Position numbers and translations under genes: made by a program
In this document: one piece after another, positions 7,964 to 39,977 of the stretch
Numbering within the stretch: position 1 is the stretch's first letter
Layout: each line of letters begins with the position of its first letter
Assembly (NCBI GenBank): GCA_018304385.1
Contig: JAGVWJ010000013.1
Span: 1-41,211, forward strand
Length of the DNA stretch: 41,211 bases
Reading direction: 5' to 3'
From: Candidatus Micrarchaeota archaeon
GTDB taxonomy: Archaea > Micrarchaeota > Micrarchaeia > Anstonellales > Bilamarchaeaceae
Notes under the pieces: generated by a model
Told to the model about the DNA's origin: nothing
The model's database searches: none
The model's input: the letters and a program-made list of their open reading frames with translations, nothing else

Positions 7964-8305
7964 TGCAGGGGACAAGATCTGTTCCACTGAATCCTTTTTA
8001 GAATCTAATGATCCTCTTATGTTAAAAAGGATTCATCCAAAAACGATGTTAAAATAATTATCGTTTAAAACCCTCACCGTTTCTTTGGGGGTGAAGGCCT
8101 CAGCCCCTTTTTTCTAAAGAAAGGGGCTATGGCTTGAACTTGTGTAGGCACTAAGCCACGGGATATCTTATAACTGCACTTACTCGCAGTTTTTGGAGTT
8201 ACCTTTTTTCCTAAAAAGGTAACAACTTAAGTCCCGCGCATTTGAACCACGCTCCATCCGTAAATGTGTCGTCTGTCGCGTGTTTGACCGCTCTGCCACC
8301 CCTGC
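7964..8305 (-). tRNA. tRNA-Leu(UAA) with three introns (D-loop, 37/38, T-loop 58/59)
   Basis: Exons are 8305-8284, 8241-8226, 8164-8134 and 7978-7964. They splice to GCAGGGGTGGCAGAGCGGTCAAATGCGCGGGACTTAAGATCCCGTGGCTTAGTGCCTACACAAGTTCAAATCTTGTCCCCTGCA. Acceptor stem GCAGGGG/CCCCTGC, anticodon stem CGGGA/TCCCG, T stem ACAAG/CTTGT, long variable arm. Intron 2 has a canonical BHB (CTTA/TAAG central helix). Confidence 0.9.
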
Positions 8306-8439
8306 GTCCCGCCTTTTAGGTAAAAGGCGGCCCAAAACTGTTTCGTTAATAAATACTAACGACACAGTTAGAAATAAAATTAGAACCCAACTTTTTAAAA
8401 ATAGGAGGCCCATTGCCCAAGGCTCATTGTTCATGATAG

Positions 8440-9409: not shown

Positions 9410-10519
9410 TCAAATCAAATTTTCAAATTCAGATTTTACTTTATCCTTATTTTTGTTTCTAAATTCTTCTGGCGCAAGTATCAATACGCGCTTTCTTTTC
9501 TGTTCGCTTATTTCTAAAGAGCGCACGATCTCAGAAAGTTCGGTTATGGGTTTTAACCCATCTTTTGTTTTTACCTTAAAATTAACTGGTTTATAGAAAT
9601 ATGTTGGATAATCAACAATTATATCACACTTTAAGCGTTCGCATAGCTCGCTTTCAATCTTTTTAAAATTCTTCTTTATTTTTTCATTCGGTTCTAAAGA
9701 ATAAACCTCTTTATACAATTTTCTTTTCATTAACGCATCTGCGTATTTATTACTAGCACGCATTTTCAAAAGAATTTCCTCATCGCCAGCGCTTAGAAAA
9801 TCTTCCGGGGTTATTGCTTTGTTTTCTATTGCAAGAGAAATTGCCTTTCTTAGCATTACTGCTGCAATGCGCACTGCGCGATGGAGATAAACCGTTGTAA
9901 ACATCATGAACCTTGCAATAAGCAGGCTTTCAGCAGCAGTTAAACTACTTTCTTCAATGGTAAGTTCAGTTTTTTCAAGCGACAGTGTATGCGTTATTCT
10001 ATCTACATCTACTATTCCGTATGCAACACCTGTATTGCGTGCATCTCGCATAAGATAATCCATTCTATCTGCGCCAAGATCGCTTGTAATTATATTTCCT
10101 TCTGTCGTATGCTCAATATCTAGAATTTGTTTAGGAGAAAAGTTTTCTTTTAATAAATCTGCTAGCTCGCCGTTCATGATTTTTTTCTTTCCTATTTCTT
10201 CATGATTACCTAAATATTGTTTAAGTACGTATTCGCTCTCATGCGAAAAAGCAACATGGCCGACATCATGCAATAATGCGAATAATCTAATCTTTGCTAA
10301 TGCCTCGCCAACGTAGCATAATCTTTGTGCCATTGTAGAAGCAAGATGCATTGTGCCTAAGCTATGCTCAAATCTAGTATGTGTTGCGCTTGGGTAAACT
10401 AGATAAGTGAAAGCCATCTGCTTTATTCTATGCAAGCGTTGAAATTCTTGGCTGTCTATTACACGCCTCTCCAATTCGCTGCATTCTATTGTACCGTATA
10501 ATTCGTCTTTGATTATCAT
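9410..10519 (-). CDS. HD-domain phosphohydrolase (SAMHD1/dNTP triphosphohydrolase-like)
   Basis: Motifs FQRLHRIKQ, HTRFEHSLG, ALLHDVGH, GADRMDYLMRD. Confidence 0.92.
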   Translation of the reverse strand: MIIKDELYGTIECSELERRVIDSQEFQRLHRIKQMAFTYLVYPSATHTRFEHSLGTMHLASTMAQRLCYVGEALAKIRLFALLHDVGHVAFSHESEYVLKQYLGNHEEIGKKKIMNGELADLLKENFSPKQILDIEHTTEGNIITSDLGADRMDYLMRDARNTGVAYGIVDVDRITHTLSLEKTELTIEESSLTAAESLLIARFMMFTTVYLHRAVRIAAVMLRKAISLAIENKAITPEDFLSAGDEEILLKMRASNKYADALMKRKLYKEVYSLEPNEKIKKNFKKIESELCERLKCDIIVDYPTYFYKPVNFKVKTKDGLKPITELSEIVRSLEISEQKRKRVLILAPEEFRNKNKDKVKSEFENLI

Positions 10520-10560: not shown

Positions 10561-10603
10561 GGGGTTGGAAGCCTCAAGGGGCGGAGCCCCTTATGGCTTT
10601 AAC
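10561..10603. repeat. GC-rich hairpin repeat family member (AAGGGGC-GGA-GCCCCTT)
   Basis: Perfect 7-bp stem at 10576-10592. Its flanks are shared with the tRNA T-loop intron element at 8087-8139. It abuts the stop codon of the NosD-like gene. Confidence 0.8.
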
Positions 10604-12928
10604 TTATTTCTTTCTCTTCCCTTTCTTGCGGCTTAAGTAATAATATATAATTAGTGCAACTATTACGATTAACAACGTTGCATATAAGTAAGTATTATCC
10701 ACTGTCGCCTCTCCTTTCTTTTCTACCTCGCCTGGTTCAACAGTTACATTATCGCCTGCTTTTTTCCCGCTTGGTGGCGGAGTAGGTTCAGGTGTTGGTT
10801 GCGGTTCTGGTGTTACATTTCCAGTTGGCTGAGGAGTAGGCACAGGCTGCGGAGTTGGTATCGGCACAGTTACATTTGTAATATTCGCAGCTACTGCTTC
10901 CTCACATAGTGTATAGTTAAATTCTTTAGCATCTGGTTTAGCATATCCGTTTTTCTGTGCATCCAGTTTATATGCACCGTTGCTTGTTAATAAAAATTCA
11001 ACATCTCCGCTTACATTTGTTTTTGTGCTTTGAATTTCCTCCCCACTTTTTAGTAATCGGACCAGAACATCATTAACGGGATCGCCAGTGCTTAATGCCT
11101 TTATTTTTATTTTATTTTCTGGGCATACAGCTGCTGTAGATAAATCAAAGTTAATTGAAAGCGACTTTGCAGTACCAATATCGCTAGTAGGTTTAGATTC
11201 AAACCCAACTGCCCCAAATATGCTAAATGTTCGAATATTATTATCAACAACAAATCCACTAGAACTTTCATCAGCATCCAAGCGGACCCAACCACCAGAG
11301 TATTTTGCAATATATGCGCCAAGGGTTCCTAAAGAAGCAGCATCATAATATACCCCAAGTGAAATAACTGCATTGCTACTTGTACTAGTTATATTTACAA
11401 CATTTTTAGCGCTACTATATGGAATTAGACTGCAAACGTTGAATGCATTTGAATCTGCACAACCATCACTTACACCCGCGCTAGTAGCAGTTAATGTCTT
11501 TAGATTAACATCTGTAGCAGCATCAAATGCAATTCTTAAATCGCTAGTAGTAAAATTATAAAAATTAGAACCAACCTTGGTAGTAACATTTGCGCTAGTG
11601 TTTACCTGTAAGTCCCATGCGCTCGCACCAGTTGTTAAAGCTGCATTACTGGTAAATGTTGCATTAGCCCCGCTTGCAAACACATATTGCACAAGCGTGC
11701 TGGAAGTTGCATTATTATTGTGCATAGAAACACTAGTGCTATCTATTACATGATAGCCATATTGTGTATTGCTTCCAGCATTGTTATTTGAAACATTATT
11801 ACTATTTGATGCTGATTCTAAAAAGAATCCGCGTAAATTGCTATTAGCTGTGCTAGCAGTTATATTGTTTGATGTTGCAGCAGTTAAATAGAACCCATAA
11901 ACCGTATTGCTGTTTGCAGTATTAGAAGTCAGATTATTCTGTTTTGAGCTAGACTGCAATCCAAAACCGCTTTGTGTGTTTTGATTTGCTGTATTTGAAT
12001 TCAGACTGTTGCCATCAGAGTTTGTTATAAGCAAGAATCCATAGGCAGTATTGTTATGTGCGACATTGCTGCTTACAGTATTACTATCTCCGTTGTTTAG
12101 CAAAAATCCATCCTGCACATTATTATGCGCAGTATTGCTATTAACAGTATTTGAAGAGCTATCTACTACTGAAATGCCAGCTTGTAAATTGAGGCGGGCA
12201 GTATTGCTTGTTAATGTATTTGCATTAGATGTGCTTTGAAGGCTTATACCATCAACGCTATTGTTTGATGCAAGATTGTCTCTTATTGTATTGCTGCTCG
12301 AACTTAGTACTAGGATACCATAAGTAGCGTTGGATGCATTATTGCTAGAAACAGTATTGCTATTTGAAGTGGCATCAAGAATAATGCCATATGTAATTTG
12401 TTGATTAACTAAATTATTATTTATTGTTCCAGAGCTTGCACCGTTAAAATATATTCCGTAGCGATTATTTTGCACAGTGTTATTATGGATATTTGCACTG
12501 TTTGCAATAACCTTAATACCTATTGCATTTGCACTAGAAGCGGAATTTGCGCCCTGTACTGTTAGATTTGTTATTTCAACACCAGTAGCAGAAACATTAA
12601 AAACTGCTAACGTATTTGTGCTAGCATTTACGATTACTCCAGCATTTTTACCAAATATTTTCAATGAAGCTTTATTTACCTCTGTGTTTGCAAAATGCGC
12701 GCCAGTTGAATTGTCGCAAATATAAATAGTATCTCCAGAGGCTGCAGCATCTATTGCTCCTTGTATTGTTGCGCGATCATTTGTATGCGGCTGCGCAGCA
12801 GCATTGCACGAGCTTGCTGCAGTAGCGTTTACATACCACTCTGCAGCAAAACTAACAGTTGAGAATGCAGTTATATAAAGAAATAAGTATATTAGAAACA
12901 ATGATCGCAATATATTTATAACGTGCAT
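10604..12928 (-). CDS. Surface protein with right-handed beta-helix (NosD/CASH-like) repeats and C-terminal TM anchor
   Basis: Signal peptide, about 12 repeats of roughly 22 aa (G-F-x-L-x-x-S-x-x-N-x-x-x-x-N-x-A-x-x-N), PTPQP linker, TM helix and basic tail. Confidence 0.88.
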   Translation of the reverse strand: MHVINILRSLFLIYLFLYITAFSTVSFAAEWYVNATAASSCNAAAQPHTNDRATIQGAIDAAASGDTIYICDNSTGAHFANTEVNKASLKIFGKNAGVIVNASTNTLAVFNVSATGVEITNLTVQGANSASSANAIGIKVIANSANIHNNTVQNNRYGIYFNGASSGTINNNLVNQQITYGIILDATSNSNTVSSNNASNATYGILVLSSSSNTIRDNLASNNSVDGISLQSTSNANTLTSNTARLNLQAGISVVDSSSNTVNSNTAHNNVQDGFLLNNGDSNTVSSNVAHNNTAYGFLLITNSDGNSLNSNTANQNTQSGFGLQSSSKQNNLTSNTANSNTVYGFYLTAATSNNITASTANSNLRGFFLESASNSNNVSNNNAGSNTQYGYHVIDSTSVSMHNNNATSSTLVQYVFASGANATFTSNAALTTGASAWDLQVNTSANVTTKVGSNFYNFTTSDLRIAFDAATDVNLKTLTATSAGVSDGCADSNAFNVCSLIPYSSAKNVVNITSTSSNAVISLGVYYDAASLGTLGAYIAKYSGGWVRLDADESSSGFVVDNNIRTFSIFGAVGFESKPTSDIGTAKSLSINFDLSTAAVCPENKIKIKALSTGDPVNDVLVRLLKSGEEIQSTKTNVSGDVEFLLTSNGAYKLDAQKNGYAKPDAKEFNYTLCEEAVAANITNVTVPIPTPQPVPTPQPTGNVTPEPQPTPEPTPPPSGKKAGDNVTVEPGEVEKKGEATVDNTYLYATLLIVIVALIIYYYLSRKKGKRKK

Positions 12929-20951: not shown

Positions 20952-20985
20952 GTGCCAGGGGGCTCCGCCCCCTAGCGTAACCCCC
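20952..20985. repeat. GC-rich hairpin repeat family member (5-G/5-C variant)
   Basis: gtgccagggggctccgccccctagcgtaaccccc differs from the 33379 and 39945 copies by one extra G, one extra C (stem preserved) and one substitution. Confidence 0.88.
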
Positions 20986-32899: not shown

Positions 32900-33634
32900 T
32901 TATTTTAATTTAAAATAAATTCTTCTATTATTTTTTCCTTTGTTTTCTAATTTTATTAGTTCTATTTTGCCAACCTCGTTAGTATTCTTAACATGCGGTC
33001 CACCATCTGCCTGAATATCTATCCCTGGAATTTCCAGTATGCGAAGTTCTTTTATTTCTGGTGGCAACGCGCCAGCAAGCTTGACTACACCTGGAATCTT
33101 AAGTGCTTCTTCTCTTGGAAGAAAGTAGATTTTAATTTCTACGTTTGTCTTGAGTGCTTCATTAGTTTTTCTTACATATTCTTCAATTAGTTCGCGTGTT
33201 GGATTTTCCAAGTTAAAATCTATTCTGCTCTGATCGGTATCAATTTGATTGCCAGTTATAAGTACGCTTGCCTCTTTGTTCATTATACCTACGAGTGCAT
33301 GCGCTGCAGTATGCATGCGCATTAGCTTATATCTGCGCTCCCAATCTATAATACATTTGACGTGGTCACCAGTTTTCAGTGCCAGGGGCTCCGCCCCTAG
33401 CGCAACCCCCTTTTGATTTAGTTCGTGTACTATCTGACCCTCGGATTTCACAACACCCACAACCCCGAACTCACTACCCGTAACAATTATTTTTCCTGTA
33501 TCGCTCGGCAGCCCACCACCACGCGGATAAAAACAAGTTTTATCCAATACAACTTTTCCATCATTTACACTAACTACTTGCGCATCGCATTCTTTTATGT
33601 AACTGTCTTCTAAGTAAAGCGCTGATTCTTTCAT
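32900..33634 (-). CDS. alaX: Alanyl-tRNA editing protein AlaX (AlaX-M type)
   Basis: Motifs LYLEDSY, LDKTCFYPRGGGLPSDTG, RMHTAAH (HxxxH), QADGGPHV. Confidence 0.92.
   Translation of the reverse strand: MKESALYLEDSYIKECDAQVVSVNDGKVVLDKTCFYPRGGGLPSDTGKIIVTGSEFGVVGVVKSEGQIVHELNQKGVALGAEPLALKTGDHVKCIIDWERRYKLMRMHTAAHALVGIMNKEASVLITGNQIDTDQSRIDFNLENPTRELIEEYVRKTNEALKTNVEIKIYFLPREEALKIPGVVKLAGALPPEIKELRILEIPGIDIQADGGPHVKNTNEVGKIELIKLENKGKNNRRIYFKLK
33378..33411. repeat. GC-rich hairpin repeat family member inside alaX coding sequence
   Basis: Exact reverse complement of 39944-39977. It is translated as (K)GVALGAEPLA(L). Confidence 0.9.
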
Positions 33635-39441: not shown

Positions 39442-39945
39442 ATGCGCCTCATATTATTTACAGTTCTCTTAACCTTCCTTTTCGGTTGCTCATTGCTGCA
39501 GCAAACGCAAGAGGAGAAAAAACAAGACGTTACGAATGTAAAAAATAGATCGCTAGACTTATGGAAAAAAAGTGAACCAAAGATAGAAAATAAAACACCT
39601 GTTGAAATACCTCCTCCACCAGTAATAGAAAATAAAACCGAGAACACATCCGTTCAAGGCTCACTGCCCAATGCTCAAAGCTACAAGCTGAATCTAGGTG
39701 AATCAATAGTCATAGATGGAAACGTATATACGTTCTGCGATTACGCTCATCGCGTAGCCACAACAACCAAGATATCATTTTGCCTAGGAAATAGTCCAGC
39801 ACTTGGTTTTCATGCATTAGTTAATCAAGAGGTGCCAGTTGGTAATTATACAGTATTAGTTACAAAGTTTGTTCCAAAGGATAATGTAATTGGATTGCCA
39901 GAGATTCCCTATTTGGAACTTACTTTATCACCAAAGGTTAATTAG
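39442..39945 (+). CDS. Lipoprotein-like secreted hypothetical protein
   Basis: MRLILFTVLLTFLFGC start and Pro-rich linker. Confidence 0.7.
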   Translation: MRLILFTVLLTFLFGCSLLQQTQEEKKQDVTNVKNRSLDLWKKSEPKIENKTPVEIPPPPVIENKTENTSVQGSLPNAQSYKLNLGESIVIDGNVYTFCDYAHRVATTTKISFCLGNSPALGFHALVNQEVPVGNYTVLVTKFVPKDNVIGLPEIPYLELTLSPKVN

Positions 39946-39977
39946 GGGGTTGCGCTAGGGGCGGAGCCCCTGGCACT
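39944..39977. repeat. GC-rich hairpin repeat family member forming the whole spacer between two convergent stops
   Basis: agggggttgcgctaggggcggagcccctggcact is the exact reverse complement of 33378-33411. Confidence 0.9.

Follow-up and report, generated by a model that had tools for sequence, protein, structure and literature searches.

The tRNA-Leu(UAA) gene of a Candidatus Micrarchaeota archaeon (assembly GCA_018304385.1) carries in its T-loop an intron that opens with a member of a family of small hairpin cassettes, and members of the same family lie outside tRNA genes. We describe this family starting from contig JAGVWJ010000013.1, all 41,211 nucleotides (nt) of which we call the window; it is contig C33 of a genome of 1.53 Mb and 36.5% G+C, here labelled G000. 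Two congeners (G001 and G002) and a member of another genus (G042) are referred to repeatedly. The best explanation that we can offer, held with moderate confidence for its two parts taken together, is that the T-loop of tRNA-Leu(UAA) is interrupted at positions 8133-7979 (minus strand) by an archaeal intron of the kind that proteins splice, and that the cassette family which opens it is small non-autonomous mobile DNA, akin to miniature inverted-repeat transposable elements (MITEs) or Rickettsia palindromic elements (RPEs). Judging from sequence, the cassette resembles a miniature mobile element by which tRNA introns are created or remodelled.

In the raw DNA of the window ARAGORN and Rfam both find no tRNA. 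Read on the minus strand, 7964-8305 nevertheless contains an acceptor stem (8305-8299 pairing with 7971-7965), a CUUAAG anticodon loop and a T-arm, distributed over exons 8305-8284, 8241-8226, 8164-8134 and 7978-7964. When 8283-8242, 8225-8165 and 8133-7979 are removed in silico, an 84-nt RNA remains which ARAGORN, at default settings, calls tRNA-Leu(taa) and whose T-loop reads UUCAAAU. Removal thus restores a canonical tRNA, as it should for archaeal introns of the bulge-helix-bulge (BHB) type, and the boundaries of the tRNA and its introns are located to within one base. In the cell, splicing would presumably take place at these predicted junctions. The T-loop intron is 155 nt long and occupies position 58/59, or 59/60 if shifted by one base. 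An earlier note on this DNA had given the interval as 7979-8139; the T-loop intron is indeed there, with 7979 as its last base, but 8134-8139 are exon bases of the T-loop. Genes of this kind are easily missed. In the 1.5 Mb of G000 ARAGORN finds four tRNA genes (eight with its intron option) and Rfam four above threshold, because two or three long non-canonical introns interrupt most of its tRNA genes, so that standard finders overlook nearly all of them. For three partly spliced genes (C20:26k, C55 and C20:60k) ARAGORN calls failed or looked spurious, and their isotypes were read by eye. At permissive E-values Rfam matched the window to snoR74, SmY and a CRISPR repeat; these matches were sub-threshold and we judged them to be noise.

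The first 62 nt of the T-loop intron (8133-8072, minus strand) make up what we call the type A cassette. It was delimited by alignments and by a covariance model, R1, built from the intron cassette alone with exon bases left out. Its layout is three P1 bases, AUA, a C/U-rich P2 hairpin, CUGA, the three P1 partner bases, UUCACCCCCAAAGAA and a small second hairpin; as a fold this gives a 3-bp P1 helix, an AUA/UGA internal loop, the P2 hairpin and a CACCCCC tail. In the Leu intron P1 is formed by 8133-8131/8099-8097, P2 by 8127-8117/8113-8103, the tail by 8095-8081 and hairpin 2 by 8094-8090/8078-8074. The outer P1 pair covaries (G:C in 10 copies, C:G in 14, A:U in 3, U.G in 3 and G.U in 1, so that 31 of 33 distinct copies are paired), and in P2 changes from C to U are compensated by changes from G to A. 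Beyond the cassette, the full 155-nt intron is homologous to the T-loop introns of Leu(CAA) and Leu(UAG) in congeners and to the Ser and Tyr-like introns of G000. A consensus fold of five such homologous introns (RNAalifold) has four hairpins and ten pairs with compensatory changes; hairpins 3 (8066-8060/8047-8041) and 4 (8034-8023/8000-7989) lie in the 3' half of the intron (7989-8066, minus strand), and both helices show compensatory changes.

Each of the eight type A copies that BLAST and R1 detect in G000 opens an intron, at its 5' edge, of a different tRNA gene. Six of these introns are in T-loops (Leu, Arg, Ala, Ser, Pro and a Tyr-like shell), one is in a D-loop (Thr) and one is at the canonical position 37/38 (Cys). 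The R1 E-values run from 3e-24 to 1e-8 for the top six and are 2.5e-7 for the Pro copy and 0.04 for the Thr copy. Similar introns are therefore found across isotypes and at different tRNA positions (T-loop 58/59-59/60, D-loop, 37/38), which is what characterizes transposed tRNA-intron families in the sense of Fujishima 2010. Among 81 related genomes of the family, representing 23 genera, type A is present in 20 genomes and 9 genera, with 1-20 copies in each positive genome; in one genus none of the 22 genomes yielded a copy. Inside tRNAs it is always in sense orientation.

In other genera type A copies also occur directly after mature tRNA 3' ends. At two loci, L068 (G059:C106) and L069 (G059:C27), the cassette begins right after the discriminator base of a complete tRNA 3' end. 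Not only 5' splice sites, then, but also a site of RNA 3' processing can mark its 5' edge. Copies away from tRNAs lie, again in other genera, between 22-70-nt direct repeats of the target (L070, G059:C63; L073, G015:C2; L074, G015:C3). At G059:C63 the flank duplication keeps the C-terminal coding end of an opposite-strand open reading frame (ORF) intact, and at G015:C3 flank and cassette alternate in tandem (flank-cassette-flank-cassette-flank).

Some details of the type A introns can be mentioned here. The tRNA-Ala(UGC) gene (G000:C20:87286-87530, plus strand) would have a spliced T-loop reading UGCGAGU, with G at position 55, if its boundary is as in the other genes; the base is unusual, and it may mean that the cut lies elsewhere in this gene or that there is another small intron. 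We considered pairing of the CCAU intron start with AUGG near the 3' end as a feature of the family and rejected it, since it occurs in Leu (as GUGG), Tyr-like, Arg, Ala and the G002 Ile intron and is missing from other copies. A kink-turn or box C/D reading of the AUA/UGA loop was rejected as well: the cassette does contain CUGA, yet what stands opposite is AUAGC or AUAAG rather than NNNGA, with no GA dinucleotide, and no Rfam family scored above threshold.

A second stretch of the window, 10561-10603, resembles the start of the Leu intron. As had been noticed before, 8087-8139 and 10561-10603 share a left flank (12/15 positions) and a right flank (11/12), and differing self-complementary cores stand between them; direct reading confirms this. 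In the whole of G000, both strands considered, 17 sites match the left flank in at least 12 of 15 positions and 10 sites match the right flank in at least 11 of 12, and just two places, the intron itself and 10561-10603, have both flanks at a spacing of 8-45 nt. About 0.001 joint matches are expected from the single-flank rates, and 20 first-order Markov genomes contained none, which places the similarity above chance. Coincidence has one observation in its favor, and it counts against our explanation too: the cassette-only model R1 gives 10561-10597 a score of 10.2 bits, E = 0.64 in the window, which is not significant. The score is low because six of the left-flank matches are exon bases (GTTCAA versus GTTAAA) and because the core differs. 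Evidence from the window alone is thus suggestive only, and homology of 10561-10603 rests mainly on copies in congeners. A search of relatives with the DNA around the element matched it, at 96% identity over about 47 nt, to G002 (contig C27), where this sequence opens a 59-nt intron in the T-loop of tRNA-Ile(GAU). With a joint flank match about 1000-fold above expectation and this identity to the start of a real T-loop intron in a congener, a chance resemblance is ruled out, and we give it practically no weight.

On the minus strand 10561-10603 follows the plan of an intron cassette, namely GCC, AUA, a hairpin, UGA, GGC and a UUCCAACCCC tail, with the core GGGGC-UCC-GCCCC. P1 is 10597-10595/10573-10571, P2 is 10591-10586/10582-10577, the tail is 10570-10561, and T-loop-like GTTAAA stands before them at 10603-10598. 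The element ends after the tail; because the last 12-19 nt of the G002 Ile intron, comprising the second hairpin strand and the GAAC end, are missing from it, we regard it as a truncated copy of a second cassette, type B. In G002 type B copies open the T-loop introns of tRNA-Ile (59 nt) and tRNA-Val, and in G042 one opens the T-loop intron of a tRNA with compensated P1 (CCC/GGG) and P2. The version with the swapped core is therefore itself an intron cassette. Type A and type B share a CCAUA start, P1, the AUA/UGA loop, a variable P2 and a tail of the form UGAGG..UUC.A.CCCC, and there is support for placing the start of the Leu intron and the 10561-10603 hairpin in one cassette superfamily with interchangeable P2 cores. 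The Leu intron's own cassette is type A and not the GGGGC-core type.

The truncated copy sits immediately after a stop codon, in an 84-nt gap between a beta-helix/NosD-like gene (10604-12928, minus strand) and an HD-domain gene (9410-10519, minus strand). No flanking direct repeats were seen around it. In G001 and G005 the upstream DNA is different and holds no copy, and the G002 contig starts at the downstream gene.

Empty and filled orthologous sites, which one expects of a MITE or an RPE-like element, were found at two places, the T-loop of tRNA-Ile and an ORF of the PEBP family. After in-silico splicing the mature tRNA-Ile of G000 and G002 are identical at 75/75 positions, and ARAGORN calls both Ile(gat). 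The G002 gene has introns of 47, 40 and 59 nt, while the G000 gene is interrupted twice, by 15 and by 50 nt, with its T-loop left intact; in G001 the same T-loop contains an unrelated 55-nt intron, and in two other genera it contains none. Thus the suggestion that such elements offer a route to new introns is borne out by an empty and a filled T-loop in congeners whose mature tRNA is the same. The PEBP-family ORF (G002:C105) contains a type B copy in frame, which adds 13 amino acids compared with both G000 homologues; it is one clear case of in-frame insertion in a protein gene, the hallmark of RPEs, and it is antisense to the mRNA. A further comparison concerns divergence: 10561-10603 and the G002 Ile intron are 4% different, whereas the neighboring HD gene is 25% different (75% identical) between G000 and G002.

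The tRNA-Leu(UAA) gene can also be followed between genomes. In G002 it is syntenic (contig C31), downstream of the HD gene as in G000, and has a T-loop intron at the same site. The 3' half of that intron is homologous to the one in the window, but an AT-rich hairpin takes the place of the GC-rich 5' cassette, which fits cassette-wise remodelling. The T-loop of Leu(UAA) in other genera has an unrelated short intron or no intron. The broader claim of the earlier note, a mobile hairpin tolerated in tRNA because it is spliced out, is largely upheld, with type B copies identified, by their sequence, as probable introns, as an intergenic element and as an in-frame insert. Its proposed target, AAGTTNAA, is weakly supported, and AAGTT.AA is no general target; in the Leu intron these bases are simply the T-stem and T-loop. 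The pentamers upstream of type B copies are TTCAA, TTCTA (twice), TTAAA, CACAA, ATCGA and TGGCT, and nine sites point weakly to, at most, a loose TT(C/A)(A/T)A preference.

Several observations weigh against mobile DNA as an explanation, and other explanations draw on some of them. Terminal inverted repeats, by which a MITE would be recognized, were not seen. At the tRNA sites there is no target-site duplication, with only one ambiguous A at tRNA-Ile. Could the introns have moved as RNA instead? Excised (circular) introns might be reverse-spliced by the endonuclease and ligase into BHB-like sites of other RNAs, copied to DNA and recombined into the genome, and copies outside tRNAs would then be retro-insertions. 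The insertions in tRNAs are bounded exactly by splice sites and have no target duplication, the cassette is sense-only there, and the G.U and U.G pairs of P1 function on the sense strand only, all of which such a pathway would explain. G000 even has a reverse transcriptase gene. Yet this enzyme has the motifs of diversity-generating retroelements, a template-specific type; the window copy is 3'-truncated and keeps T-loop-like bases upstream of the splice site; the PEBP copy is in the wrong orientation relative to its mRNA; and type A copies away from tRNAs have long flanking direct repeats. On this evidence we think movement at the RNA level unlikely. A fragment of a reverse transcriptase lies at G000:C2:18553-18969 (minus strand), where a 242-residue open frame near a contig end has an LGNLTSQ motif and YVDD; such a combination is typical of diversity-generating retroelements, to which the fragment would, by its motifs, belong.

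The near-invariance of CUGAG and UUCACCCCCAAAGAA is another point that weighs against mobile DNA, since it could reflect an RNA function rather than recent movement. The family might not be mobile at all: a motif under selection, at work in RNA or DNA as a signal for processing, say, or for protein binding, could have been spread by gene conversion through the conserved T-arm, with intergenic copies in separate roles, for example in 3'-end formation. Conservation of these bases across genera is what such a motif would show. The position of the cassette's 5' edge where RNA is processed, at 5' splice sites or at the 3' ends of tRNAs, several GGGGC-core copies just after stop codons and the predominance of T-loop sites, as predicted for microhomology-driven conversion, fit it too. 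Gene conversion leaves unexplained, however, the copies in D-loops, at 37/38, in PEBP coding sequence and in unrelated intergenic DNA, as well as a range of 0 to 20 copies between sister genera, and the window copy has neither the 3' hairpin nor a T run after its stem. A non-mobile origin seems improbable to us for these reasons.

The search for a mobilizing enzyme also counts against mobile DNA. Neither the Y1/HUH transposase domain (PF01797, Y1_Tnp) nor the TnpB zinc ribbon (PF07282) has a match in G000, which is 89% complete, although control genomes were positive. The only candidates there are a single DDE transposase gene and the retroelement-type reverse transcriptase, and neither is near any cassette copy. 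The elements are short imperfect palindromes, dispersed in both orientations and conserved in their flanks, and in this they do recall, as the earlier note suggested, hairpins mobilized in trans by a Y1 HUH transposase, either in systems of repetitive extragenic palindromes and their associated tyrosine transposases (REP/RAYT) or in those of the IS200/IS605 type. With no match to either domain in G000, whose 89% completeness falls short of proving absence, a system of this kind is very unlikely, and the transposase that was expected to be flanked by the hairpins did not turn up. Two more reservations are that all the genomes are metagenome assemblies (G002 is 75% complete with 5% contamination), and that the BHB motif at the Leu T-loop is relaxed on its 3' side, with a P1 partner strand that is not contiguous with the central helix. 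Despite these points we prefer mobile DNA as the explanation, and we infer that the movement takes place at the DNA level, that a mobilizing enzyme exists and that P1-P2 has a role in cleavage.

How might such an insertion be spliced? Near the 3' end of the Leu intron GAAC (7981-7984, minus strand) can, by direct reading, pair with GTTC at 8139-8136, that is, with G53-C56. A 4-bp GUUC/GAAC central helix can thus be drawn, with a 3-nt 5' bulge AA|G, directly followed by P1-P2, and a 3' bulge AG|A. The consensus fold has a covarying helix between T-loop and intron end, with P1 set off by a 2-nt linker. For its 3' side the motif requires a 5-nt bulge or breaks G53:C61; in the minimum free energy fold and in the consensus fold the helix is 3 bp long and its bulges are unequal, and the strict 3-4-3 motif was obtained in neither. 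In the type B intron of the congener tRNA-Ile a strict 3-4-3 upper half can be read directly from the sequence. The host has, by sequence match, what relaxed motifs call for. Its endonuclease of 399 amino acids matches the epsilon2 enzyme of ARMAN-2 (PDB 4FZ2) over the full length with E = 1e-129, and an RtcB ligase gene is present. The ARMAN-2 enzyme cuts both strict and relaxed motifs, among them a relaxed 59/60 motif in vitro (PMC3239211). A second endonuclease-like ORF, at G000:C53:12962-13210 (minus strand), encodes 167 amino acids with a tRNA_int_endo domain.

The following scheme may be suggested. The cassette, with its A.A/U.G/A-U internal loop, would land between genes, now and then within a protein gene and in frame with it, and in tRNA genes, where it would survive since the inserted RNA can be excised. 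The P1-P2 stem, directly 3' of the 5' cut site, would supply the outer helix, and a short 3'-terminal stretch (GAAC, CGAA or UGA) would pair with the invariant T-loop. Together the two would form a relaxed bulge-helix-bulge substrate for the broad-specificity epsilon2 endonuclease, after which RtcB would rejoin the exons. One cassette could thereby make a spliceable insert in any T-loop. An extension of this scheme is that the cassette, as a DNA element carrying half a splice motif and a 3' end complementary to the T-loop, is a vehicle of tRNA-intron gain in archaea. We offer it tentatively, as something quite possible that we would stop short of calling probable. If it is true, the host epsilon2 endonuclease turns a potentially lethal insertion in a tRNA loop into a new intron, which would explain why intron-rich tRNA sets are paired with broad-specificity endonucleases.

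Hairpins related to the cassettes are not limited to these two types. The GGGGC-UCC-GCCCC core of 10561-10603 is present in three further hairpins of the window, at 20952-20985 (plus strand), 33378-33411 (plus) and 39944-39977 (minus), and in four elsewhere in G000; we call them type C, with the form GUGCCA, GGGGC-UCC-GCCCC, UAGCGYAACCCCC. At G000:C19:15175 (plus strand) a Pro-rich ORF begins with a lipobox-like LLFGC, just behind which a type C hairpin and then a degenerate second copy stand in frame. This type C copy, in the N-terminus of a lipoprotein, is possibly a second hairpin that is read as protein. There are also type B copies with long loops; together with one type C copy (the loci are C42:1-100, C50:3662-3790, C65:6480-6693 and C37:2464-2540) they have in common a 3' extension that ends in TTTCTAATACATCAAG, and the C65 copy holds a 31-nt tandem duplication. 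Contig C42 starts inside such an element, and the long-looped repeat can therefore be said to break the assembly.

The other two introns of tRNA-Leu(UAA) have relatives of their own. The D-loop intron (8242-8283, minus strand, 42 nt) is bracketed by a direct repeat, GGTCAA / GGTTCAA, because of which its junction can slide across five bases, and a related copy lies at G000 C12:67748-67788. The canonical 37/38 intron (8165-8225, minus strand, 61 nt) consists of a hairpin and a CCAAAAACUGCG tail and belongs to a second intron-cassette family, in which a hairpin of U and A runs is followed by a C(C)AAAA(A)C tail; related copies are found at G000 C40:13329-13364 and in relatives. A hairpin of the tRNA-Ile 37/38 intron, related to this second family, has 31 matches in genome G004. 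Finally, a GC-clamped leader hairpin (8309-8332, minus strand) stands 3 nt upstream of G1 of tRNA-Leu. It represents another hairpin family that is found inside introns too; hairpins of this type occur upstream of tRNA-Ser (C55), inside introns of the tRNA-like gene at C20:26k and in D-loop introns of G002, and none is present upstream of the syntenic tRNA-Leu ortholog of G002.

We know of several systems with which the cassettes can be compared. ARMAN-2 (Ca. Micrarchaeum acidiphilum; PMC3239211 and, for 4FZ2, PMC3488258) belongs to the same phylum and has T-loop introns at 59/60, relaxed motifs and the epsilon2 enzyme of which the G000 endonuclease is a full-length homologue. The introns described there are 13-25 nt long, however, and no intron families or dispersed copies are described, whereas those considered here reach 155-200 nt and are built from reusable cassettes. 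REP/RAYT and IS200/IS605 systems are similar in their dispersed hairpins with conserved flanks, but the Y1 HUH transposase that defines them was not found in G000, nor was TnpB. In Thermoproteales, families of tRNA introns have spread across isotypes and positions (Fujishima 2010, Mol Biol Evol 27:2233, as summarized in PMC4090602). According to that summary, transposition was inferred in 2010, and the mechanism of spread, thought to act at the DNA level, is unknown. Those hosts, too, have a splicing endonuclease of broad specificity. The present case differs in that the host belongs to Micrarchaeota (DPANN) and has an epsilon2 enzyme, and in that what the introns share is a 5' cassette, joined to 3' halves that vary. 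The cassette family is also found in intergenic DNA, in frame in an ORF and after tRNA 3' ends, occurrences that the sources consulted do not report for Thermoproteales.

RPEs provide another parallel. R. bellii has 526 of them, 53 in ORFs and one in the tmRNA gene (PMC1458961). They have in common with the cassettes that they are short and palindromic, lack their own transposase and are scattered: both kinds lie between genes, have entered protein genes in frame and are present in a gene for a structured RNA. RPEs are bacterial, about 100-150 bp long and not spliced out, whereas an insertion of the cassette in a tRNA gene would, as its sequence suggests, become or remodel a spliced intron. 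What is new is that the cassette opening tRNA introns belongs to the same family as hairpins outside tRNA genes, with empty and filled sites between sister genomes. One sequence family is thus seen in four states: it opens a tRNA intron, forms a hairpin between genes, is inserted in frame in a protein gene, and is absent from the orthologous tRNA of a sister genome. These four states tie the gain of archaeal tRNA introns to a dispersed mini-element. The filled and empty tRNA-Ile and pre-tRNA-Leu are concrete substrates for endonuclease assays and for surveys of insertions in populations.

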